Positions 8,030 to 61,285 of a stretch of DNA of 64,000 nucleotides are shown here, one piece after another (within the stretch, counting starts at the first letter, position 1; each line of letters begins with the position of its first letter). This DNA comes from a virus (lineage: Duplodnaviria > Heunggongvirae > Uroviricota > Caudoviricetes). Under the pieces are notes generated by a model. It did not search any database. It was not told where the DNA came from and worked only from the letters and a program-made list of their open reading frames with translations. Where the stretch lies: IMG/VR virus record IMGVR_UViG_2585427757_000006, one strand, 5' to 3'. Made by a program: the position numbers and the translations under genes.

Positions 8030-8733
8030 CAGCGCACCTCACCATCTTTATGGCTGGAGTTAACTTCCGTCATTAAATGTCTGACGTAATCGACAAGAGA
8101 GCCGCCTGGTGGAATCTGGCATTCCTCAACTAACTGGAAGTAGATATCCGCTGCATTACGTGTATTGCTACCCGCGCATATTCTTTCTTCCCGAAGTGCA
8201 TGAAGCTCGTTGATCAAACGGTCACACTCTCCGTTACGCTGATCCACAACGGCCTCAAGCTCTGCGACGCGTTCACCTGGCGTCTTACCTTCTTTGCGTT
8301 GGATGGTAACGACGAAATCGCCAATTGCAGGGACGTTGTAATCCAGCTCAAGGTAGTTTTTGGCACCGCTGCGGACGAACTCACCCGCGAACATGGTGGC
8401 GAACATCGCAGAGGCCACTTCTCCGTTGAAAAGTGACTCCAGATCTAACGGAGTCCCGGCAGCAAGAGCCTCCTTTGCTGTATCCATTGCATCCATGAAC
8501 CGATCAAACTCACTAGCGCGCTTTTCCAGGTCTTTCCATTGCTCGCTCCAACGTTTGGCAACGAAGTCTATGAATGTTTTCGCGGATTCATCAAAATTCC
8601 CCTCAAACTTAACGATGCCTTTATCAATAATGATCTGGCCTACCGCATCCTCTGCATAACCTTTCAATGTAAACTTGAAAGGAAAATCGGAATGGCCTGT
8701 GACGTTAAAATGCTCTAACTGGAGGTTGCTCAT
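8029..8733 (-). CDS. Hypothetical protein (234 aa)
   Basis: Starts in the conserved leader (plus catgtgttttt at 8731). No motif recognised. Confidence 0.65.
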   Translation of the reverse strand: MSNLQLEHFNVTGHSDFPFKFTLKGYAEDAVGQIIIDKGIVKFEGNFDESAKTFIDFVAKRWSEQWKDLEKRASEFDRFMDAMDTAKEALAAGTPLDLESLFNGEVASAMFATMFAGEFVRSGAKNYLELDYNVPAIGDFVVTIQRKEGKTPGERVAELEAVVDQRNGECDRLINELHALREERICAGSNTRNAADIYFQLVEECQIPPGGSLVDYVRHLMTEVNSSHKDGEVR

Positions 8734-46660: not shown

Positions 46661-47830
46661 TCACGTCTTAATAGTTTCTGCTACGTCGGCTAATATCGCT
46701 TCTAGTCGTTCTCCCTCTTCAGGTCTGAAGTAAAGAATGTTGGGGTTAAACCCGTAAAAGACAGTAACGTCAAGGTCTGGAAGATACTCCTTCCTGCCGA
46801 CCAAATCGGATGGCTTGTTTTTGTTGTTAAACAATGAAGTTGCCCGGCTGCCACACGTCAGCACATAGGTCGGACGCACCAGATTGATCTCTTCACGCAT
46901 AAAGTCGGTGAACTGGCCGATCTCGTCTTTGGTGTAGTCTTTTTCTTTGTCTTTAACCTTCTTGCAAACACCTGTGACATAGAGATCGCCCATGCGTAAA
47001 TCTCCAGCCGTCAATAGCTTGGCCTTAAAGTCGTCGTATCCGTTCTCCATAAAGTAACCGGTTCGAGCATCATTGCCGTTCGCATTGTCCAGAATGATCA
47101 TGATTTTCGGCTTAATACCAATGCTGGGGCGGATTAGTTCATCACCTAAGCCCATTTCAGCCGCCATCCGCGTCATGAGTACGTTAATTTCAGCCGAACG
47201 TTTGGGGTTCATCTCAAACGGACGTGAGGCTTTAACTGCGTCTATGACAAGGTTTCCCATCAATTCAGCCTGGTCGCGTAGGCGCTCTGGATCAGTTGCT
47301 GGCAGACTGCCTGGCTCGATGGATGCAAACGCCCCTACTTTTTGCAGCGATTCGCGCACTCGACTATTACAGGCACGTTTCTCGACAGCTTCTTCGAATT
47401 GCGCCAGTGACTCGAATTTGCCGCCAACTTTTTCTCGCGCTCTCATGATGGCTTGGCAGCCATTCTCAGAACACCCCTTCACAGCAGAGAAGGGCGCATA
47501 CAGCACCTGGCTGCCATCTTCAAGCGTGCGGATCTCGATTCGGTTAGATGACACGTTAACGTCTGGTGGCAATACGCGAATGCCATAGGTCAGCGCATCT
47601 TTAACCAGCCCCTGGTGTTTATCTTCGCCAAGAATAGTGAGAGCAGCAGCGAAAAACTCTGCGGGATAATGAGTTTTCAACCACATAGATTGATAACTGA
47701 TTAAGGAGTAAGCAACAGAGTGTGATTTGTTGAAGGCATACGCGCCGGATTTCTCAAACATATTCCAGATTTCTTCGGCTCGTTCGTGCGTCAGGCCATT
47801 GCTCTCTTCGACAACACCGGTAATTTTCAT
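46661..47830 (-). CDS. dnaE: DNA polymerase III alpha (DnaE-type) C-terminal fragment fused to a UDG-like domain (389 aa)
   Basis: YAFNKSHSVAYSLISYQSMWLKTHYPAEF is the conserved DnaE finger motif. The last ~170 aa (IMIILDNANGNDARTG...LTCGSRA...FYGFNPN) resemble a family-4 uracil-DNA-glycosylase fold. Confidence 0.8.
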   Translation of the reverse strand: MKITGVVEESNGLTHERAEEIWNMFEKSGAYAFNKSHSVAYSLISYQSMWLKTHYPAEFFAAALTILGEDKHQGLVKDALTYGIRVLPPDVNVSSNRIEIRTLEDGSQVLYAPFSAVKGCSENGCQAIMRAREKVGGKFESLAQFEEAVEKRACNSRVRESLQKVGAFASIEPGSLPATDPERLRDQAELMGNLVIDAVKASRPFEMNPKRSAEINVLMTRMAAEMGLGDELIRPSIGIKPKIMIILDNANGNDARTGYFMENGYDDFKAKLLTAGDLRMGDLYVTGVCKKVKDKEKDYTKDEIGQFTDFMREEINLVRPTYVLTCGSRATSLFNNKNKPSDLVGRKEYLPDLDVTVFYGFNPNILYFRPEEGERLEAILADVAETIKT

Positions 47831-48561
47831 GCAGTCACCTCATCAATCTTCACGAACTCATCCCCATTGGAGGCCAGCCAGTTCCGTTGGCGCTCCCAGC
47901 TCCATATCTCTTCACGCATTTCACTATGCAGGCGAATGTGGGCGTCTTCTGGAAGTGCTACAAGATTCCCAGGGGCGTTATCTATCGTATCGCGGTTAAT
48001 ATGGTGGACATGTTCATCGTCACGTAGCTCCCGACCGAGACGTTCTTTCGCTATCAATCGATGAACGTATTCGTATTGCGAAACGCCATTGTTACCAACC
48101 AGCTGCATCATGTAGCCGTTGGTTTTTACGATGATGCCACCTTTGTAGTTGTTCGCTTCTTCTCCGATCTTTCCGCGTTTGGCAGCCGCCAGCTTTTCCT
48201 TCGTCTCCGCGCGGATTGTTCTGCCGGTTAGCTTTTTCGAAACGGTGGCCACTCGCTCATCGATATCAGCACGCAGACCGGCATTCCACGAGGTTTTCCC
48301 ATACATAGGGTTGCCAGTGCCAGTCCGGGCTTCGGAGAGACGCTTCATACGTTCGTCATTATTTTTGTTTTTGCCACGATTCCAGGCTGGGGTAGCGGAG
48401 ATCCGCGCGCTTCCGCGCCTGATCCCCCATTTGGCTAATAAGCGGTCAATATTTGCCTTGCTGCAACCAGCTTCGGCGGCAATGTCTTCTTTTCTCATCA
48501 GGTCAACCATGTAACGCTGACGTAACCATTCTTCTGTGATTTTGTACTTCGTACTCGGCAT
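47827..48561 (-). CDS. Free-standing HNH homing endonuclease (244 aa)
   Basis: C-terminal HNH EYVHRLI...HVHHINRDTIDNAPGNLVAL..H, with NUMOD-like repeats (PAWNRGK, KTSWNAGL). ATGA overlap with the downstream polymerase fragment. Confidence 0.85.
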   Translation of the reverse strand: MPSTKYKITEEWLRQRYMVDLMRKEDIAAEAGCSKANIDRLLAKWGIRRGSARISATPAWNRGKNKNNDERMKRLSEARTGTGNPMYGKTSWNAGLRADIDERVATVSKKLTGRTIRAETKEKLAAAKRGKIGEEANNYKGGIIVKTNGYMMQLVGNNGVSQYEYVHRLIAKERLGRELRDDEHVHHINRDTIDNAPGNLVALPEDAHIRLHSEMREEIWSWERQRNWLASNGDEFVKIDEVTA

Positions 48562-48609: not shown

Positions 48610-50973
48610 TCAAATATCGAAGCTCGTTATGTCGGCATTTATTGCCATTGCTTCGGCATAAGTGCGACGCTCACCATCAGCACAAAGTAGGCGTGCTGCT
48701 TTATGGATTTTTCTCGTAGAACCATCATCCAGTGACACTGTCACCCAGCCTTCCTCCGCTCGCTTAATGAAGTCGCCGCCAATGGATTTCATTTTCTCCA
48801 TATCTTTTTTCCCGATCGCTTTCCTGACCGAGTCTGCTTCCGCCATTGAGAACCCCGCCAAGATTCGCGTAGCAGCCATGATCTGTTCCTGATAAATCAG
48901 AACTCCGTTTGTGTCGCGAGAGATGTCGTCCAGCATTGGGTGTAAGGAATGTGGGGCCATGAAGCCTTTGGCCACGGACACATAATCGTCCAACATGCCG
49001 GATTGAATCGGGCCAGGTCGGAAGAGCGCAGTTGTAGCGACGACCGTTTTAAAGCTCATTGGCTCAATTCCACCACCTAAATCTTTAAGCAGCTTGCGCA
49101 TTGGGCCTGATTCAAGCTGGAATACGCCCTGTGTATACCCTGCAGCAAAACCATCCAGCACCTTGCGATCTTCAAGAGAAATGGCATCAAGATTGATATC
49201 TTCACCTGTGTTCTCTTTTATGTAGCGTTTTGCACTATCGAGCAAATCGAGAGTTGCCAGGCCAAGCACGTCCAGCTTAATTAGGCCCATAGCCTCGCAG
49301 TAACGCTTGTCAAATGCGATACAACGCGCGTCACCACGGCGTTCAACCGGTGTACGTTCTGTCAGAGGAACACCTGCTACGATCATCCCTGCCGCATGTC
49401 TACCAAAGCCACGCATAAGGCTTTGTAACTTGCAGGCTGCATTGAATGCATCAGGATATTTTGTTGCGTATTTGTCGAGACTTGCCAGTTGTTCGCGCAG
49501 CTCTTCCAATGGAAGGCTATCATCCTCGACGTTCTTCAGTTCTTTTGATACCGCCATATCTGCGGACTCCACACCATAAATACGAGCGGTGTCACGTAGT
49601 GCAGAGGCTGCGCCCAGGTAGGTGAAGTTCGGAATGCCTGCAACGTAATCTTCGCCGTAGCGTTCATTCAGATACTCGATCACCTCATGGCGACGTGCCT
49701 GGCTGAAGTCCAAGTCCGCATCCGGCAAGTCGAGACGCTCAGGGTTGATGAAACGCTCAAACAGAAGACCGTGACGGATTGGGTCGACGTTGGTTATGCC
49801 TATGCACCACGCCACCAGAGAACCGGCAGAGGAACCACGACCAGGCCCAACGGGAATGCCAGTTTCACGACTATGATTCATCAGATCGCGCACCATCAGG
49901 AAGTAACCACAGAATCCCAGGCGAGTCAGCGTGTCCATTTCGTACTTTAGCCGCTCAACATAAACCCTGTTCTCAGAAGCAGGTGGTGTGTATCCAAACT
50001 CTTTTGTGGTAAGACGTTTACGCAGCCCTGCAACAGCCAGTTTCATCAGCGTTGCAGGTTCGTCGTCTGCCATCTTGGGCAGTGCTGGTGGCAATTCATG
50101 CCAGCGCCATGTGCAGGCATCGATAATGGAGTCCTGCGTTGTTGAGGCCATTGCAGCTGTTACCGGCACATCCATGCGAACGGAGAAGGCTTTAAGCGCC
50201 TCAAGGAGATGGCGACGACCATTGATGGCGTTATCTCGCTGGTGGGGGATACGCAGACGATGCGGCTGGTCGATTTTTATGTTGTTCGTAACCATGTGCG
50301 CAATGTCTTTAATGTCTGCATCGTCGATCGATTCGTAATAAGCGGGATAGAACGCCACTGGCTCTATTTTCAATGCGCTGGCGACTTTCATCGCCCGGAC
50401 GTTAATCTGGTCGTAGAATGGGGTAGGGTGCGGATAAACCACACTATAGAAGTTGTCTTTTCCACCCGCTGTAATCAGTGTGCTTATGATTTTTGCAAAA
50501 TCGTTGCGTTGGAACACGCTACCGATGTCGGAAGTAAGCAGGATGATGTTGCCTTTGGCATATGTAGAAACCAACTGTTCGAGCGAGAGACGCGGCACAA
50601 AGTAGAACTGTTCTCGTGTGTTGGCCACCGTCATTAGTTCGCAGATGTCGCGATATCCTTGCTCATTTTTAATTAGAGCGGTAAACGAGTAGTTACGTCC
50701 CCGCTCTAATGATTCCATACATCTCATAGATTCTTTAGCAAGTTTAGCCCGGTGCTCGTATGTGGGATCATCAACAATGTTTAGTTTCACACCACAAATA
50801 ACCGCCATGTCGTCACCAGCGGCACGTTGTAGTGGAATAACGCTCGCAATATTCATGCTATCTGCTGAAATTACAGCGGTGTAGCCAGCTTCTCTGGCAA
50901 TCTTCACCGCGTTTTCAGCTTTTAGAGCCGACTCCCCAAGTGAGAAGTCAGTTCGAACCATCAGTGCCTTCAT
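48610..50973 (-). CDS. dnaE: DNA polymerase III alpha (DnaE-type) N-terminal fragment: PHP, palm, thumb (787 aa)
   Basis: GPGRGSSAGSLVAW, DLPDADLDF (catalytic Asp pair) and LFRPGP. Ends 45 aa after ..FIKRAEEG with non-DnaE-like sequence. Confidence 0.9.
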   Translation of the reverse strand: MKALMVRTDFSLGESALKAENAVKIAREAGYTAVISADSMNIASVIPLQRAAGDDMAVICGVKLNIVDDPTYEHRAKLAKESMRCMESLERGRNYSFTALIKNEQGYRDICELMTVANTREQFYFVPRLSLEQLVSTYAKGNIILLTSDIGSVFQRNDFAKIISTLITAGGKDNFYSVVYPHPTPFYDQINVRAMKVASALKIEPVAFYPAYYESIDDADIKDIAHMVTNNIKIDQPHRLRIPHQRDNAINGRRHLLEALKAFSVRMDVPVTAAMASTTQDSIIDACTWRWHELPPALPKMADDEPATLMKLAVAGLRKRLTTKEFGYTPPASENRVYVERLKYEMDTLTRLGFCGYFLMVRDLMNHSRETGIPVGPGRGSSAGSLVAWCIGITNVDPIRHGLLFERFINPERLDLPDADLDFSQARRHEVIEYLNERYGEDYVAGIPNFTYLGAASALRDTARIYGVESADMAVSKELKNVEDDSLPLEELREQLASLDKYATKYPDAFNAACKLQSLMRGFGRHAAGMIVAGVPLTERTPVERRGDARCIAFDKRYCEAMGLIKLDVLGLATLDLLDSAKRYIKENTGEDINLDAISLEDRKVLDGFAAGYTQGVFQLESGPMRKLLKDLGGGIEPMSFKTVVATTALFRPGPIQSGMLDDYVSVAKGFMAPHSLHPMLDDISRDTNGVLIYQEQIMAATRILAGFSMAEADSVRKAIGKKDMEKMKSIGGDFIKRAEEGWVTVSLDDGSTRKIHKAARLLCADGERRTYAEAMAINADITSFDI

Positions 50974-55154: not shown

Positions 55155-55541
55155 ATGTCTGACAACAAGATTGAATTTATAGAAAGTCGCTATGCTGCTT
55201 TTATCGCAGGGCTGATTGAATCCTCACCTATGAGTCAGGCCCAAATAGCCAGACTTATTGGTTATAAAAATGCCAACAACCTTTCTTTAATTAAAAGTGG
55301 CAAAATTCCTTTGCCTATCGATAAGGTTCGTCCGTTGGCGCTGGCGCTGGGTATTGAGCCAAGTCGTCTTATGATGATGGTGCTGGAAGAACGCCAACCT
55401 GAACTCGCAGCATTTTTATACAAAGAAGGCACCGCTCCTCTTAACGAGGACGAAAAACAGGTTCTTGCTGCATATAACGAGCGATTCGGTAAAGAGAAAG
55501 GCGCATCACAAAAGGTTGTTGAGGCTATAAAGTCTCTATGA
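55155..55541 (+). CDS. XRE-type helix-turn-helix regulator (128 aa)
   Basis: MSQAQIARLIGYKNANNLSLIKSG fits an HTH. Converges on and overlaps the integrase gene end by 6 nt. Confidence 0.7.
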   Translation: MSDNKIEFIESRYAAFIAGLIESSPMSQAQIARLIGYKNANNLSLIKSGKIPLPIDKVRPLALALGIEPSRLMMMVLEERQPELAAFLYKEGTAPLNEDEKQVLAAYNERFGKEKGASQKVVEAIKSL

Positions 55542-56639
55542 AAAATTTACACGAATAAGCTCTGTTGATAGACGATCTCCCTTAAATTTGTGGTCAATTT
55601 CGTCTAAATCCGGTTGCTCTACGATTGATGCGATGTACGTCGAGAAACTTTCTAAGGCGTCTCGCATCTCGTCCATATAATCGTGCCGGTCGTAGACCCG
55701 ATCTATCCCCTCAAGACTGTGGTTCATGATTTTACGTGATACCTCCTGGCTTATGCCTAATGCTGGGAAGTAACTACGCGCAGTACGGCGCAAATCTCGG
55801 GGTGTAAATGGCTCAAGCTCCATCAGTTCTGGTCGTTCCAGAATACGACGTAATGCCTGGGCTATTGCCACTTTAGACATAGGAAGGTCTTTCCCGATTT
55901 TTTTATTCGAAGGCACGAGCCACTGGCTGTCTTTACCATATTCGAACAACTCTTCAATACAAGTGCGCATTAATGAGCTTAAAGGCAGAGAATGCTCACG
56001 GGCAGATTTGTTCCTCTTGCCTTGATTCCAAACCCCACGCTTAAGATTGAACTCACTTTTTTTAGCCCGCAGTACTTCGTCAGGTCGTCTTGCGGATACA
56101 AGACATAGCCTGGCCGCCCATTTTGTACCAGCACACACATTGAAGTAGTCCCATATATTCCAGAACACCCATACCTCTGCGTCGGTCAGCTTCCGCTCGC
56201 GAGGTGTGGGCTTTGCGCCACCGGCAACTTTGTTTAGTGACATATCGTTTAACGGTGACACGTCTATCATCCCCTGGAAGGCGCACCAGCTAAGGAACTG
56301 CTTCATCAGAGAGAAAACGCGGCGGCCCATAACAATTTTGCCATCCAGTATTAGTGGGTTGACCAGTTGGTTCACCATGAACCTATTAATGTCACTTACT
56401 TTTACATCGGCAATGTGCGGCAAAACATGTATCAAAATACAATGAACAGCGATCTCTGGCCGACGTCTGGTTATCAGCAGAGATAAGCGAGTGAATAACA
56501 TGAATGCGTCCGAGAATCTCATGTCATTGCTGACCTGGGAGATCATAACGGCCTGCATTTGAGATGCTCTTTCGAGATACTCTATCGCCTCTTTTGAGGT
56601 GTTCTCCGCAGCGCGTGCTCTGTCAAAGCTATTTTTCAT
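55536..56639 (-). CDS. Tyrosine recombinase / phage integrase family (367 aa)
   Basis: Catalytic context ARRPDEV (Arg), PRDLRRTA (second Arg), MNHS (His) and VYDRHDY (Tyr). Confidence 0.9.
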   Translation of the reverse strand: MKNSFDRARAAENTSKEAIEYLERASQMQAVMISQVSNDMRFSDAFMLFTRLSLLITRRRPEIAVHCILIHVLPHIADVKVSDINRFMVNQLVNPLILDGKIVMGRRVFSLMKQFLSWCAFQGMIDVSPLNDMSLNKVAGGAKPTPRERKLTDAEVWVFWNIWDYFNVCAGTKWAARLCLVSARRPDEVLRAKKSEFNLKRGVWNQGKRNKSAREHSLPLSSLMRTCIEELFEYGKDSQWLVPSNKKIGKDLPMSKVAIAQALRRILERPELMELEPFTPRDLRRTARSYFPALGISQEVSRKIMNHSLEGIDRVYDRHDYMDEMRDALESFSTYIASIVEQPDLDEIDHKFKGDRLSTELIRVNFS

Positions 56640-56737: not shown

Positions 56738-56770
56738 AATGATTCCATACATAGTAGGTATGGAATCATT
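56738..56770. promoter_or_regulatory. lox/FRT-like site: perfect 13-bp inverted arms around a 7-bp spacer
   Basis: aatgattccatac atagtag gtatggaatcatt, 99 nt upstream of the integrase ATG in the divergent intergenic region. Confidence 0.55.
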
Positions 56771-56889
56771 GTGGGCCTTTTTTATAAAATCTGTGATTCT
56801 TCTCAGGATAAATTATCTAAACTAAAAATTGTGTTTTGTGTTGGCATCTGCTTGAATAGACGCATGTTTATTCAGATATGGAATAATCA

Positions 56890-57426
56890 GTGAACAACCA
56901 AATTCATTGGGACTACCCATTCTCAGAAGAATTCGGCAGTGGGATGGTACACAGACAATTCACTGTGGGAAGCACTATTTATGCCGTTGGGTTTGAACAA
57001 ATATTGACGATGGATGATTTCACACGTAAGGGAGTTGATATCCTAAATGTACATCCAACATTCCGGTTTCCTCTGAGTGGTGTATGGGGAGTGATTTTTG
57101 ACGAAATTGACCCTGTAGAAATGGATTTCAAAGGATTTCGGCATATCCAACATCAAGGCTTGGCAGGTGGTCAAGTGCTTTTGAATGTTGCAAGTATAAT
57201 CTTTGACCATTATACTGTTTGTAACGCAGGAGCTTATGTCTTCTCCGCCGCAGACGACCATCAGCATTTACGCAGAACTGACTTGGTTGACATTTACTGT
57301 AAGATACTAGGTCTAAATGGAAAACGTAAAAGTAGATTGTTCGCCAATGGTTTTCCTGGATGGGAGGCATACTGTGATGTACCAACAGGAGGAAGAGGCT
57401 ATGTCGTCACGACTGAAAGTTATTAA
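56890..57426 (+). CDS. Hypothetical protein (178 aa, GTG start)
   Basis: Long plus-strand ORF. No motif recognised. Confidence 0.5.
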   Translation: MNNQIHWDYPFSEEFGSGMVHRQFTVGSTIYAVGFEQILTMDDFTRKGVDILNVHPTFRFPLSGVWGVIFDEIDPVEMDFKGFRHIQHQGLAGGQVLLNVASIIFDHYTVCNAGAYVFSAADDHQHLRRTDLVDIYCKILGLNGKRKSRLFANGFPGWEAYCDVPTGGRGYVVTTESY

Positions 57427-57628
57427 TTATTACCCCACCTCTGCAGAACGTTTGAGCCTTGAAATGGGCGAAAGACTACAGAAAGCTGCTGGTCAGGATT
57501 TAAAGAACAAGTTGGGTTCAGGGGAAATTAAACTGATTAACGGTAAATATGTAGGTGAAAGCCTGAAAGTTAATAGCACCTCTATGCTAAAAGCGCGGTT
57601 GCGTAAAGCGTATATCCCCGCTAAATGA
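57401..57628 (+). CDS. Hypothetical protein (75 aa from MSSRLKVINYY)
   Basis: ATG at 57401 preceded by ggaggaagagg. Overlaps the upstream ORF by 26 nt. A terminator follows. Confidence 0.4.
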   Translation: MSSRLKVINYYPTSAERLSLEMGERLQKAAGQDLKNKLGSGEIKLINGKYVGESLKVNSTSMLKARLRKAYIPAK

Positions 57629-57650
57629 AAAGGCCTATATGGGCCTTTTC
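57627..57650. terminator. Bidirectional terminator between convergent genes
   Basis: gaaaaggcc tatatg ggccttttc. Confidence 0.7.
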
Positions 57651-57654
57651 ATTT

Positions 57655-57900
57655 TTATAGTGTACTCACCAGCGCCGCAAATTCCGTATACCCCCCAATA
57701 TGCTCTCCATGTATGAATATCTGAGGTATGGTATCCACTGGTTTACCAACCAGGTTGCTCAACGTTTCTTTGTTGATCCCCGCAGATGTAATATCTATAT
57801 ACTCATAATCACCGTAGCCATGTCCCTTTAGTTGCTTCGCCAACTCGACCGCACGTTTGCAGTATGAGCAGTTATCTCGTCCGTAGATAGTGATCGTCAT
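57655..57900 (-). CDS. Glutaredoxin-like redoxin (81 aa)
   Basis: Active site CSYC at residues 11-14, a TIPQIFI..G..IGG motif, and small size. Plausible electron donor for NrdAB. Confidence 0.8.
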   Translation of the reverse strand: MTITIYGRDNCSYCKRAVELAKQLKGHGYGDYEYIDITSAGINKETLSNLVGKPVDTIPQIFIHGEHIGGYTEFAALVSTL

Positions 57901-58073
57901 AACTTAACAAATACCTTTATAAATATTGATTCGAACATATCAGACTATACTACAAACAGATTTTTTTGATAAGTATGTAGTAACTTATTGATTGACTAGT
58001 AAACAATTGAAGTGATTACGACAATAGATTACAGTAAGGATTGCCTTGAAATGTACATTTTATAGAGGTTTTA

Positions 58074-58982
58074 ATGATTGGTAAGTTGTCTGATTCTTTG
58101 ATTGAAAATAAATACAACGAATTTAGAGAAGAAATATCTTTACTTTTTGACTATTTAAATCAGATAAATGATACAACAAAGAAAAATATAAAACGTCTTC
58201 TTAAAGAAGTGGAGTATGCACAAAATCCAGATACTATTATTAATATTAATGAAACTATTAAGATTAAGTGTGGCACAACGTTAGCTCGCCATTTATGTTC
58301 AAACCCATATACAGGTTCAACATTAGAGATAGGTAACAGCGCCATTGATTTAGAAGAAAAGATAAGATTGTGTAATACTTTGAAAAATAAACAATATCAG
58401 TGGGTTATTACTGAAGCCTATGAGTTACTGGAAGACTATATTGAGGCAATATATGTCTATACTGTATGTGTTCGAAATGATTTATGGTCCTCAAGTGATT
58501 TTGGTAAGGTTGAAGATGATGAAATTGGGAAAAGGGAAGTTTATTACAGATTATTAAAAGCAAAAAGTAACCCATCGAAAAAAATAACTAAAATTTTCAG
58601 AAATAAAATACCTGGCTTCAAAGAGATAGAAACAAACAACAAGATTGGCAAAAACTATCGCTTTAACATCAAGCTAATTGAACTACTAAGACATACAATA
58701 GTACACAATAGTGGACGATTCAATGATACAGAAAAATTTATAAATAAGGTTTTAGATGAATCTGAAATAAACGGTAAGAAAAGAGTTATTGGAGAAAGAG
58801 CTGTTAGAAGTTACATTACTAAAGTGCAAGAAGATGATATTGTGATGCTCTTAGAAAGACCATCTGAAATTTTAGGTTCTTTTGGTGGGTATTTTAACAG
58901 AGCAAAATTTTTACTAAGTGATATTTTAGAATACTCACTAATCATTAAAGAAGAACTAAAATCATATCTAGGCAATCATTAA
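58074..58982 (+). CDS. Low-GC hypothetical protein with a HEPN-type Rx4H motif (302 aa)
   Basis: SD agagg at 58064-58068. LIELLRHTIVHNSGRF gives R-HTIV-H. Composition (by eye below ~30% GC) is much lower than the neighbours. Confidence 0.6.
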   Translation: MIGKLSDSLIENKYNEFREEISLLFDYLNQINDTTKKNIKRLLKEVEYAQNPDTIININETIKIKCGTTLARHLCSNPYTGSTLEIGNSAIDLEEKIRLCNTLKNKQYQWVITEAYELLEDYIEAIYVYTVCVRNDLWSSSDFGKVEDDEIGKREVYYRLLKAKSNPSKKITKIFRNKIPGFKEIETNNKIGKNYRFNIKLIELLRHTIVHNSGRFNDTEKFINKVLDESEINGKKRVIGERAVRSYITKVQEDDIVMLLERPSEILGSFGGYFNRAKFLLSDILEYSLIIKEELKSYLGNH

Positions 58983-58986
58983 CAAA

Positions 58987-59013
58987 AAAGGGGCCGAAGC
59001 CCCTTTGGATTTT
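58987..59013 (+). terminator. Strong intrinsic terminator after the HEPN-motif gene
   Basis: aaaggggc cgaa gccccttt, then ggatttt. Confidence 0.8.
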
Positions 59014-59080
59014 GCGCTTAAAAAAGTGTTGCTAGGATGTTAGCAAGCTATGGTTAAGAACGTCTGCCGTAATTGTCTAT

Positions 59081-59158
59081 CACAGCGTTGAGCGGTCTGG
59101 TTTATGTTAGCGGAGTCTTAATCTGGGTGATTAAAAGGCCAAACCGCTCAACGCTGTG
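59081..59158. repeat. Long hairpin A, 16-bp perfect arms, abutting the tRNA-Ser 3' end
   Basis: cacagcgttgagcggt 59081-59096 pairs with accgctcaacgctgtg 59143-59158. Confidence 0.85.
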
Positions 59159-59160
59159 TC

Positions 59161-59247
59161 TGGCGGAGAGTAATGGAATCGAACCATCATCGCTTGCGCA
59201 ATGGGACGGTTTTCAAGACCGCTTGAGCACCATGCTCCCTACTCTCC
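59161..59247 (-). tRNA. tRNA-Ser (anticodon UGA), class II, CCA encoded
   Basis: Hand fold: acceptor ggagagt/actctcc, anticodon arm gcggt-cttgaaa-accgt, variable arm with a gcaa tetraloop, T arm gatgg-ttcgatt-ccatt. Confidence 0.85.
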
Positions 59248-59249
59248 GG

Positions 59250-59399
59250 CCGTTGTGGTGGCCGGTACTGAATCTCCGGCATACGGTGCAGCCAATTAGG
59301 ACTACGGACGATCACCGCTCGCGAAAGGGAAGATTTGCGGCCGCATTTCCCTAACATCCAAGAAAGCTATCGCATCAGTCTGCGAATCCACCACAACGG
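59250..59399. other. 150-nt segment closed by a 12-bp perfect stem between tRNA-Ser and tRNA-Thr (candidate small RNA)
   Basis: ccgttgtggtgg 59250-59261 pairs with ccaccacaacgg 59388-59399. Internal hairpin agggaa..gcggccgc..ttccct. Confidence 0.3.
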
Positions 59400-59471
59400 T
59401 AAGATCACTACCTTTCGACCAGTCATTGTGCACATGAACGACGATTAACCGTAATGATCTTATCGTTGTAT

Positions 59472-59547
59472 TGGTGCCGGTTAGCGGACTCGAACCGCTG
59501 ACATCCTGCTTACAAGGCAGGCGCTCTACCAACTGAGCTAAACCGGC
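59472..59547 (-). tRNA. tRNA-Thr (anticodon UGU), CCA encoded
   Basis: Canonical cloverleaf: gccggtt ta gctc agttggta gagc g cctgc cttgtaa gcagg atgtc agcgg ttcgagt ccgct aaccggc a cca. Confidence 0.92.
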
Positions 59548-59551
59548 AATT

Positions 59552-59638
59552 TGGTGGGGAGTGATGGAGTCGAACCACCCGAGTCGCAATGACAGTAGAT
59601 TTACAGTCTACCCCGCTGCCCCTACGGACTAACTCCCC
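59552..59638 (-). tRNA. tRNA-Tyr (anticodon GUA), class II, CCA encoded
   Basis: Acceptor ggggagt/actcccc, anticodon arm gtaga-ctgtaaa-tctac, variable stem gtc/gac, T arm ggtgg-ttcgact-ccatc. The D arm is slightly non-canonical. Confidence 0.8.
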
Positions 59639-59643
59639 TAAAT

Positions 59644-59718
59644 TGGCGATGGTGGGTGGATTCGAACCACCGACCAGTTGGTTAACAGCCAACTGCTCTA
59701 CCGCTGAGCTACACCATC
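59644..59718 (-). tRNA. tRNA-Asn (anticodon GUU), CCA encoded
   Basis: Canonical cloverleaf: gatggtg ta gctc agcggta gagc a gttgg ctgttaa ccaac tggtc ggtgg ttcgaat ccacc caccatc g cca. Confidence 0.92.
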
Positions 59719-59984
59719 AATTCAGCACTGCCAGTATTTATTACTCAACAGTGCCAATCGCGACGGTTTAGTTTCTGCCAGGAAACGCACCGCTACTTGC
59801 ACTTTTCGTTTGTGCCAGACGCTTTCGACTTCGCTCAATAGTAGAAGGCAAAATCTTTAAGTAGATGATGTTTCTGAGGACAGCACCTACTTTGTAATTT
59901 ATACAATGTGATGTATGGAATCATTTGTTGTGAAAACAGGCACCAATGGCAACAGTGGTTAAACCTACACAACAATCCTGTCTT

Positions 59985-60106
59985 CACAACGTTGAGGCCA
60001 CTACTCCGATTGAATGTTTGCCCAACATGTTACATATCAACGCTCGCCGGTATCTCTGTGAATAGAACCTTAGAATTGATAAAAATGTAATGGCCTCAAC
60101 GTTGTG
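59985..60106. repeat. Long hairpin B, 16-bp perfect arms related to hairpin A
   Basis: cacaacgttgaggcca 59985-60000 pairs with tggcctcaacgttgtg 60091-60106; 90-nt loop. Confidence 0.85.
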
Positions 60107-60439
60107 TGCTGGCTAACCATACCAGCCGGGCTACGTCGCCGCTTTTTAACCCAGTATAAACGACATAATTGAACAAAATGACGTAACAGGATGGGCGGTC
60201 AGTGGCTAAGAATCCGGGAGTCATATGGAGTTGAAAATATACCAACCGCCCATTCTGTTCCCTCCTGCGTTCTGCAATCACACTCGCTCAGTGTGTCCCA
60301 TTTCGGTAACGAGGCTGGAAACTGACCTCGCTGGTGTTTGGCTTATTAGGCTACTGCCAGATAGACTTCTTCGTTTGCACTTGTATTTAAGTTCAAACAG
60401 TCGCGTCTCAACGAAAACAAAGTCATCTTATACATAAAA

Positions 60440-60461
60440 GATAAGTAAGTAAATACTTATC
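60440..60461. promoter_or_regulatory. Representative family B palindrome
   Basis: gataagta agtaaa tacttatc. Confidence 0.5.
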
Positions 60462-60470
60462 AATATGTTT

Positions 60471-60761
60471 TTATTCGGTTGTGACTTTTTTGATCAAGGC
60501 CACTCTACGACTAGGTGTTCTTGTAATGGTGGCAGTGAATCGTTTCGCTTGGATAGTAATGGTTTCGTTCTCCTTAAGTTGCCCGTAGCGAGTTTCCACC
60601 AGGGTGCCAAGACGCCACAGACCATCATCGATACGTTTATGACTAGCAAATTTAATCAGCAACAGTTTTACGACTAACTGACCTACGTAAAAGGCGAATG
60701 CGACTCCGGCCGCTAAGAAATAGGTGGCCAACCACCATTCCCAAGAAGTTAAATTGCTCAT
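60471..60761 (-). CDS. Membrane protein (96 aa)
   Basis: TM segment WWLATYFLAAGVAFAFYVGQLVV and SD aggtg. The ATG overlaps the upstream stop as ATGA. Confidence 0.6.
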   Translation of the reverse strand: MSNLTSWEWWLATYFLAAGVAFAFYVGQLVVKLLLIKFASHKRIDDGLWRLGTLVETRYGQLKENETITIQAKRFTATITRTPSRRVALIKKVTTE

Positions 60762-60910
60762 TTTTTCACCTTTGTTTCATGAACTACCCGATACACACGC
60801 TTTCCGATGCACAGTGTTTTGGTTTTAAGTTCCTGCTTAATTAAATCACGACAGATGCCGAAGCCGATAAGGAAGCCACCCATAAAAGCTAATGAGATGT
60901 ATGGAATCAT
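60758..60910 (-). CDS. Small membrane protein (50 aa), not in the ORF track
   Basis: Hand translation gives MIPYISLAFMGGFLIGFGICRDLIKQELKTKTLCIGKRVYRVVHETKVKK. ATGA overlaps at both ends. Confidence 0.5.
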   Translation of the reverse strand: MIPYISLAFMGGFLIGFGICRDLIKQELKTKTLCIGKRVYRVVHETKVKK

Positions 60911-61122
60911 TTTAACACTCCTGATTCTACTAATTGCTGTAGCAATACTTTCCCTTTATCAGTTAACTGGTAGTTGGCCGAACACCACGTTTCAGAAACG
61001 TTTGCAACCAACCCTAAACGCTCTAACTTAGCTCGCGTTTTAGGCTTCCAGTACTCAGGGAACTCCGGCCACTTACTGATTTCATGAAGCGTTTCCTTCT
61101 CCCGTTTACTTAATACGATCAT
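60907..61122 (-). CDS. Hypothetical protein (71 aa)
   Basis: ORF in an ATGA-coupled chain. Confidence 0.5.
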   Translation of the reverse strand: MIVLSKREKETLHEISKWPEFPEYWKPKTRAKLERLGLVANVSETWCSANYQLTDKGKVLLQQLVESGVLK

Positions 61123-61285
61123 CCTTAATCTCCTTCAGGGTGTTGGTTATTTCTACAATGCGATAAATACGACCGCGTCTTTCTATAACACCGCTTTTAA
61201 TGTAGTCATTGATGCAACTGGACATCACCACAATACCTATGAAAAAACCAACTGCTAAAAATGCAATCATCCAGCCGAGCATCAT
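61106..61285 (-). CDS. Small membrane protein (59 aa), paralog of 60758..60910, not in the ORF track
   Basis: Hand translation gives MMLGWMIAFLAVGFFIGIVVMSSCINDYIKSGVIERRGRIYRIVEITNTLKEIKDDRIK. The ATG overlaps the ligase stop as ATGA. Confidence 0.5.
   Translation of the reverse strand: MMLGWMIAFLAVGFFIGIVVMSSCINDYIKSGVIERRGRIYRIVEITNTLKEIKDDRIK

Follow-up and report, generated by a model that had tools for sequence, protein, structure and literature searches.

Why should one arm of a recombination site recur, alone and up to several kilobases away, on the same replicon? The question is raised by a 64,000-nucleotide stretch of a Caudoviricetes genome (IMG/VR record IMGVR_UViG_2585427757_000006; hereafter the window, meaning the whole stretch of DNA that was analysed). 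The window is an SSU5/pHCM2/pMT1-type phage-plasmid: in megablast searches its 55.5-62 kb region matched SSU5-like phage-plasmids, the nearest being Escherichia phage CMS-2020a (CP053388, 98% identity), with Cyrano/pLF82 and PhiR41_1 among the further close records. The replicon is ~108 kb in size. Elements of this family are of medical relevance and very common: PLSDB has 822 related plasmids, found in Klebsiella, Escherichia, Enterobacter, Yersinia and Salmonella and including pHCM2 of S. Typhi CT18 and plasmids of Y. pestis. A perfect palindrome lies beside its tyrosine recombinase gene, and copies of a single arm of this palindrome, here called satellites, stand on both sides of it. We find that the satellites are most likely functional cis elements, with the resident recombinase as their putative binder. 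The features on which the argument turns are the following.

56738-56770, no strand assigned: core recombination site, AATGATTCCATAC - ATAGTAG - GTATGGAATCATT, a perfect palindrome with a lox-like 13-7-13 layout.
55536-56639, minus strand: tyrosine recombinase ('integrase') gene, 367 amino acids (PF00589, E = 3e-10; weak PF22022; phrog_1 integrase).
50708-50723, plus strand: satellite 1, AATGATTCCATACATC, antisense within a DnaE-like gene (codons ..R-C-M-E-S-L..).
59910-59925, minus strand: satellite 2 (the leader copy), AATGATTCCATACATC, noncoding, ~195 nt upstream of a minus-strand tRNA-Asn/Tyr/Thr/Ser cluster.
60896-60911, minus strand: satellite 3, AATGATTCCATACATC, spanning an ATGA stop/start overlap and codons 1-5 (MIPYI) of a 50-amino-acid membrane-protein gene at 60758-60910.
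56023-56033, plus strand: decayed fourth copy, CTTGATTCCAAAC, inside the recombinase gene.

The core site lies 99 bp upstream of the recombinase gene. A palindrome is found 100-150 bp upstream of the recombinase gene in >200 loci, and the same distance between palindrome and gene was seen in 71 IMG/VR loci retrieved with the recombinase as query and in 78 retrieved with DnaE, with the arms invariant throughout. The spacer varies by lineage and exists in at least 10 versions (ATAGTAG, TTAATAG, CTTACAA, CTAAAGA, CTACCAA, TTTATAG, TATATAA and others). Recombinases that are 45-52% identical to that of the window, from Pantoea, Rahnella, Erwinia, Xenorhabdus, Photorhabdus and Morganella, have TGACTCCAGAC-N7-GTCTGGAGTCA at the equivalent position (62 loci in species-representative genomes), and TGATTCCATAC arms go with recombinases at least 56% identical. 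The arms thus switch with the recombinase while the spacer length stays at 7 bp, as is characteristic of a simple tyrosine-recombinase core. The sequence marks of a simple (lox/FRT-like) site are present: inverted arms, a spacer within 6-8 bp, an adjacent recombinase gene, arms that track the recombinase lineage and a spacer that is free to change. These comparisons identify the palindrome, at the level of sequence, as the site of the resident recombinase. TGATTCCATAC-N7 and TGACTCCAGAC-N7, the clean pair of site types in this recombinase family, are candidate new lox-like tools.

In the plasmid prophage P1, the Cre tyrosine recombinase gene likewise sits beside perfect 13-bp inverted arms that enclose a short asymmetric spacer. 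The layout of gene and site is the same here, with dimer resolution and exchange between co-resident elements as likely functions. The spacer has 7 bp instead of the 8 of loxP, and the recombinase is a remote P4/CP4-57-type enzyme rather than a Cre-like one. To our knowledge, P1 has no conserved lone half-sites elsewhere on its genome.

Where, then, do the lone arms stand? The arm GTATGGAATCATT occurs exactly at 56738-56750 (-) and 56758-56770 (+), which form the core, and again at 59913-59925 (+), 60899-60911 (+) and 50708-50720 (-). At up to 1 mismatch the window has 5 matches, against 0.10 expected, a number reached in 0 of 100 shuffles. A first-pass annotation of the sequence had pointed out the two right-hand repeats; their positions and orientation are exact, the spacings it gave (3155 and 986 bp from one copy to the next) are correct, and the two share a longer block, identical at 19 of 21 nt. 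It had missed the inverted copy in DnaE, and the 15-mer it used as a title describes the left arm on the minus strand, the right arm reading AGGTATGG... instead. A count over the whole replicon, which it had proposed, places every copy within 50.7-60.9 kb: in the other 46 kb of CP053388, the closest complete genome, not one copy of TGATTCCATAC is present, even with 1 mismatch, so the motif is restricted to ~10 kb centred on the core.

Four copies have the exact 15-mer AATGATTCCATACAT in common, and the lone copies have a 14-16 nt consensus, (A)ATGATTCCATACATC; those at 50708 and 60911 are identical over 20 nt (AATGATTCCATACATCTCAT) in inverted orientation. The decayed copy in the recombinase gene is intact, as CTTGATTCCATACAT(C/T), at recombinase codons D-V-W-N-Q in the Klebsiella-type relatives of SSU5 and in K. 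michiganensis-type lineages, where it faces the core. All four independent positions have this orientation, the left copies lying on the plus strand and the right copies on the minus strand. Each satellite is a single arm. Its spacer side reads ATCTCAT or ATCACAT, versus ATAGTAG in the core, and the 13 nt past this 7-nt spacer match the arm at only ~3 of 13 positions. A search beside the satellites for a second, degenerate arm found nothing conserved, only a weak GTAT 8 nt from the leader copy of the E. coli type, and the complete two-arm sites that stand at integron attC or pdif borders are therefore not what the satellites represent. The site and the motif are not mentioned in the papers searched on SSU5, Cyrano and phage-plasmids, nor did a search for the sequence string find them; the satellites are a real and apparently undescribed feature.

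The copies show signs of selection at the nucleotide level. Within DnaE the copy is invariant in 58 unique contexts: 14 consecutive positions inside the motif do not change, and the flanks show the usual third-position wobble. Invariant third positions number 4 of 5 inside the motif versus 3 of 80 in the flanks (Fisher p = 8e-5). In the MIPYI gene the first 5 codons are invariant at the nucleotide level and the remainder varies, with invariant third positions at 3 of 4 in codons 2-5 versus 0 of 40 in codons 6-45 (p = 3e-4); the sequence set included some core-site reading frames, which only makes this test more conservative. Around the leader copy the noncoding DNA has diverged, and the copy itself is the best-conserved block there. 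In three unrelated contexts, then, the pattern of substitution is that of purifying selection at the DNA level.

The distribution of the satellites follows the type of arm at the core. Nissabacter elements, with a recombinase of only 60% identity, have all three in the same orientation. Of the three, the leader copy has the widest distribution, occurring in SSU5-type, Nissabacter and K. michiganensis-type elements; in the last of these (recombinase 56-59% identical) it stands 13 nt beyond the 3' end of a tRNA. Xenorhabdus and Morganella elements share the backbone synteny, with DnaE ~6 kb on one side and ligase ~7 kb on the other, and have TGACTCCAGAC arms; we found no satellite of either arm sequence in them, and their DnaE differs in peptide sequence at the loop that holds the DnaE copy. 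Satellites are thus confined to elements whose resident arm is the matching TGATTCCATAC. Two lineages, SSU5 and L084, keep satellites without a recombinase gene, and the leader copy of SSU5 already has one substitution. The SSU5 junction was found in none of the 822 related plasmids, which points to one recent deletion and says little about relaxed selection; since only these two lineages, with a single recent deletion, are available, relaxation of selection in recombinase-less lineages was set aside as uninformative.

Aligning 74 related loci to the window separates the behaviour of the core from that of the satellites. Homology to the window stops at the core in 69 of the 74 relatives, and in 52 precisely at 56768-56775. 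At the satellites, alignments end in 1 of 74 (the 59913 copy; an ambiguous case at 75% identity), 0 (the 60899 copy) and 0 (the DnaE copy), so neither presence/absence nor replacement polymorphism marks them. To the right of the core, homology resumes at 57655/57674 (in a diverged glutaredoxin allele, 78-81% identity), at ~58981, or at 59453 or 59643; the last two points lie inside or beside the tRNA cluster and not at repeats. From tRNA-Asn through both right-hand satellites to the ligase gene, a stretch that includes the 986-bp segment, the sequence is conserved backbone and is present even in SSU5. The products that recombination at the satellites would be predicted to leave are absent as well. 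Among >35 different sequences to the right of the core, none joins the core to the leader flank; no inversion was found, all matches in the 74 loci being colinear and the order and orientation of the sites being identical in ~150 loci, so that alternative orientations of the Rci/sfx type do not occur. The core thus appears in these alignments as the point at which hypervariable cargo is sharply bounded on its left, a boundary that is a firmer by-product of this work than the role of the satellites, and it is probably the only point of exchange, at which plasmid dimers are probably resolved.

How the satellites would act can be proposed as follows. Single monomers of the resident recombinase would bind the lone half-sites in the backbone DNA that flanks the core, all of them facing it. 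The lone sites would not recombine, because they offer one arm only and because their spacer side, ATC..., never matches the core spacer. Binding would raise the local concentration of recombinase or shape the synapse at the core, as the accessory motifs of TnpI do at short range; alternatively it would serve a purpose other than recombination, as a roadblock or a regulator, in the manner of XerD at lone sites, although any such downstream effect is speculative. We give a probability of about 0.4 to the reading of the lone copies as auxiliary, non-recombining binding sites for recombinase monomers. It is favoured by the identity of each satellite to the core arm over 13 nt, with no copy elsewhere on the replicon; by the restriction of satellites to lineages with the TGATTCCATAC core arm; and by the inward orientation of all four independent positions. 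Sites that have the sequence of a core half-site, are under selection and are not crossed over correspond in type to the accessory motifs of TnpI and the lone sites of XerD.

Several observations weigh against this assignment. The satellites have an invariant ATC just inside the arm (rarely ATT or ACC), even at a four-fold degenerate site of dnaE, whereas the spacers of the core vary freely and in no case begin with ATC; the satellites are thus under a constraint beyond that on the core, which could mean a different reader. In Chimaeribacter elements the arms are the same but satellites are lacking within 10 kb, K. michiganensis-type elements are without the DnaE and MIPYI copies, and all TGACTCCAGAC lineages are without satellites, so that the recombinase family does not require them. 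Distances of 3-6 kb far exceed those of known accessory sites. Finally, SSU5 and L084 retain satellites after what looks like a recent deletion of the recombinase.

Known systems offer partial parallels. TnpI has extra binding motifs, DR1 and DR2, outside its crossover site (PMC2847244); these lie outside the symmetric core, are not crossover points and give asymmetry and control. In the same account DR1 and DR2 are direct repeats within ~100 bp on one side of the core, whereas the copies here are 0.7-6 kb away, on both sides, mirror-oriented and in two cases within coding sequence. XerD is described as a sequence-specific unloader of SMC (structural maintenance of chromosomes) complexes in the terminus region (PMC12322038, citing Karaboja 2021). 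In that account, the Bacillus subtilis protein resembles the present case in having dispersed single-subunit sites around dif with a function other than recombination; that system is chromosomal and tied to SMC, to which nothing links the predicted sites of SSU5-type elements. The arm sites of phage lambda are also additional integrase-binding sites outside the crossover core, and binding is putative here. They differ from the core in sequence, are part of attP and depend on an arm-binding domain at the N terminus. The satellites equal the core arm and lie kilobases away, and no arm-binding domain was detected: the N-terminal region of the recombinase was not recognised as one in domain searches, which found no PF13356 or PF09003-type domain, although PF13356 is present in more distant homologues (28-34% identity). 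The term 'arm-type' that had been applied to the copies is therefore a misnomer in the lambda sense, because they are identical to the core-type arm.

The mirror symmetry of the array admits a bolder version, which we think distinctly unlikely: non-recombining monomer sites placed around a dimer-resolution site might form a polar device, similar to the Ter sites around dif or to lone XerD sites, that traps or unloads the replisome, SMC or RNA polymerase, or holds the core in a looped, regulated complex. If so, a tyrosine recombinase would have a second, architectural job on a plasmid related to pHCM2 (S. Typhi) and pMT1 (Y. pestis), and coding sequence would carry some of its sites at the expense of synonymous freedom. 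In the simpler event that the recombinase just binds, the element would be a plasmid-borne case of dispersed half-sites kilobases from a crossover site, and a replicative polymerase gene and a gene start would carry a second, DNA-level code.

The principal competitor to auxiliary recombinase binding is another reader, which is possible although we would wager against it. A factor other than the recombinase would recognise TGATTCCATACATC, either another DNA-binding protein of the SSU5-type backbone or an RNA that acts by pairing. Transcripts from the minus strand, the tRNA leader and the start of MIPYI, carry AAUGAUUCCAUACAUC, of which dnaE mRNA (and int mRNA in sister lineages) holds the exact complement, so that an RNA derived from the leader could base-pair with both of these mRNAs. 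A distinct reader would account for the invariant ATC, which extends the satellite consensus past what the core requires, for the complementarity over 20 nt between same-strand transcripts of the dnaE and MIPYI copies of the window, and for the persistence of satellites in the recombinase-less SSU5 and L084. It would, however, turn the identity with the arm into a 13-nt coincidence that recurs in several lineages, and would leave the lack of satellites in backbone relatives with the other arm type to be explained. Other lineages do not preserve complementarity past 16-17 nt (for example ATCCCCC in dnaE versus ATCCTGT in MIPYI); Rfam has no matching family, a promoter-like site is missing around the leader copy, and the adjacent helix-turn-helix (HTH) gene lacks a copy close to the promoter from which it is itself transcribed.

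The remaining explanations treat the repeats as joints or as gene starts. It is unlikely that the satellites are secondary (pseudo-att) sites, rarely used to exchange the tRNA and cargo region, and thus old recombination joints. This would be a weak form of the idea in the first-pass annotation. In its favour, in every lineage the leader copy is at the far end of the variable region that runs from core through cargo to tRNAs, and its flanks are mosaic at deep scale, the window and SSU5 sharing the outer flank only and SSU5 and the K. michiganensis type the inner flank only, with homology starting or stopping at the edge of the motif. The position of the K. michiganensis-type copy just past a tRNA 3' end fits too, as does an isolated copy in PhiR41_1 that has novel sequence on both flanks and stands beside an insertion sequence (IS) fragment. 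Recent breakpoints, however, number 0-1 of 74 at satellites versus 69 of 74 at the core; deletion and inversion products are lacking; the spacers are heterologous to that of the core; exchange at the two copies within conserved genes would be destructive; synonymous sites would not be frozen in neutral scars; and L076 and L220 are homologous straight through the satellite. The stronger claim, that the repeats bracket the cargo as borders of integron- or pdif-like cassettes, with excisable units of 3155 and 986 bp between direct half-sites, we consider highly improbable. It is true that the right arm of the core has direct orientation with both right-hand copies and that the cargo between them is highly variable, and in integrons (attI/attC) and Acinetobacter pdif modules, as here, a recombinase gene faces variable cargo. 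Here no full sites stand at module borders, no relative is precisely without a unit, and the 986-bp unit and the stretch from tRNA to satellite are conserved backbone. The comparison of gene order that had been suggested as a check put the edges of the variable region at 56770, 57655-57674, ~58981, 59453 and 59643, not at the repeats, with the counts of 69 of 74 at the core and 1, 0 and 0 at the satellites telling against both borders and scars. An Rci/sfx-like inversion system was also considered. In the R64 shufflon, the sites have one conserved arm and a 7-bp spacer (a 19-bp repeat), the second arm being non-conserved, and the 50708 and 60911 copies of the window do form an inverted pair identical over 20 nt; but no inversion is seen in >150 relatives, the identity of the spacers is lost in other lineages, and inversion would truncate DnaE. 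Least probable of all is the fallback offered earlier, that the repeats are the 5' ends of paralogous small MIPYI ORFs (open reading frames). Every copy does read ATG ATT CCA TAC ATC, and the one at 60911 starts a genuine gene of a phage family (phrog_6302, E = 1e-36). The leader copy at 59925 has no Shine-Dalgarno sequence (ribosome-binding site), and elsewhere its frame stops after 5-6 codons (MIPYIQ*, MIPYI*, MIPYIT*); the copy at 50708 is antisense in the conserved dnaE gene; the flanks are unrelated, with no homology beyond the repeat; and selection on a peptide would not freeze synonymous sites.

A number of further roles and relationships were tried and rejected. Origin from a tRNA fragment was considered since GATTCCAT resembles the T-loop/T-stem of the tRNA-Ser of the window, but AATGATT precedes CCATA without the universal TTC, and ARAGORN was negative. 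For a promoter or terminator role, a scan found no sigma-70-like site at any satellite and a manual check no -10/-35 elements at fixed distance across lineages; Rfam returned tRNAs only. Covariation of the outer arm bases between core and satellite (AAT/AAT in the E. coli type, TGT/TGT in the L220 type) fails in L076 and in the Nissabacter MIPYI copy, and covariation of the spacers of the dnaE and MIPYI copies, as expected for inversion or RNA pairing, holds in the window lineage only. A function as operator for the adjacent HTH protein was dropped for want of a copy near the promoter of that gene. A replication terminus was rejected likewise: gene orientation does not switch at the core, and the replication-protein gene of PhiR41_1 is ~18 kb away and not opposite.

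The core has some peculiarities of its own. In PhiR41_1 the 7-bp spacer (window 56751-56757) is reverse-complemented relative to the gene (CTACTAT; L006 11252-11258) while the arms are unchanged, and the spacer of L069 is likewise flipped (CTATTAA versus TTAATAG). Plain inversion or integration at the core would not produce this arrangement; one possibility is template switching at the hairpin loop of the palindrome. To the right of the core, a T-run stands 8-10 nt from the arm in nearly all versions (~70 loci) despite differing sequence (TAGACGTTGTTTTTTGAA, GAGAGTCGATTTTTTTAA, GTGGGCCTTTTTTATAA; window 56771-56800), and on the left flank a TTTT stands 4-5 nt from the arm. In a terminator scan the core hairpin with its T-run scored as terminator-like, alone among the arm copies. 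The combination could be a bend, or a terminator that insulates the recombinase gene from the cargo.

Beyond the core and the satellites, two further features of the neighbourhood were recorded.

56771-58980, no strand assigned: hypervariable cargo, with two unknown ORFs, a glutaredoxin gene and a 302-amino-acid ORF, starting from the homology break at 56770.
55155-55541, plus strand: HTH regulator gene, 128 amino acids (weak Pfam HTH_19; phrog_8).

The recombinase is distantly P4/CP4-57-like: NCBIfam PRK09692 was matched over profile positions 137-393 only, and a sequence search found no relative in the PDB. Its gene is convergent with the HTH gene, which overlaps the recombinase 3' end and always accompanies it, being kept as partner in L220 and L227 and lost jointly in SSU5 and L084. 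The type phage, SSU5 (L004 11211-11376), is without a 70-amino-acid ORF, the HTH regulator, the recombinase, the core and the cargo; L084 is without the HTH regulator, recombinase and core, and retains the 70-amino-acid ORF and the cargo. Loss of this putative, repressor-like HTH gene may be linked to the behaviour of SSU5 as a lytic isolate.

For the cargo ORFs at 56890-57426, 57317-57628 and 58074-58982 of the window, neither Pfam nor PADLOC gave a match. Beside glutaredoxin in the K. michiganensis-type cargo, L220 has at 8422-8667 a gene of the Acb2/Tad1-hairpin family (Pfam; an anti-CBASS/anti-Thoeris sponge fold), and the cargo of L076 includes ORFs that resemble toxin-antitoxin and methyltransferase genes. 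On the right of the core, the DNA has the appearance of a hotspot where counter-defence or accessory genes are found. The tRNA-Thr/(Tyr)/Asn block at 59138-59720 is 92-94% identical to tRNA clusters of the P1-like phage-plasmids P7 and D6 and of phage Ro157c2YLVW, and ~78% identical to N4-like phages; close relatives differ in their set of tRNAs (Ser-Thr-Asn in Cyrano, only Asn in SSU5). An exchange of tRNA cassettes between phage families is suggested by these data.

Between the leader satellite and a 96-amino-acid gene lies a conserved 750-nt noncoding region (window 59926-60110), also present in SSU5 and without an Rfam match, that has repeated CACAAC/GTTGTG words and an inverted repeat, CACAACGTTGAGGCC ... 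GGCCTCAACGTTGTG, ~100 nt apart. The small membrane proteins of 59 amino acids (61106-61285 (-)) and 50 amino acids (60758-60910 (-)) have the motif G(K/R)R(V/I)YR(V/I)V(H)E in common at the C terminus and appear to be paralogues; the 59-amino-acid gene (61133-61281) is missing from 12 of the 74 relatives.

On the other side of the core, the DnaE-like polymerase is split into ORFs of 787 and 389 amino acids (48610-50973 (-) and 46661-47830 (-)) by a 244-amino-acid ORF (47827-48561 (-)). The latter has an HNH motif (HVHHINRD...N...H) and is probably a free-standing homing endonuclease. PhiR41_1 and SSU5 have a single dnaE gene of 1172 amino acids, with ~800 bp missing at the split point, and in the K. 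michiganensis-type (790+386 amino acids) and Nissabacter (785+389 amino acids) elements DnaE is split without the insert.

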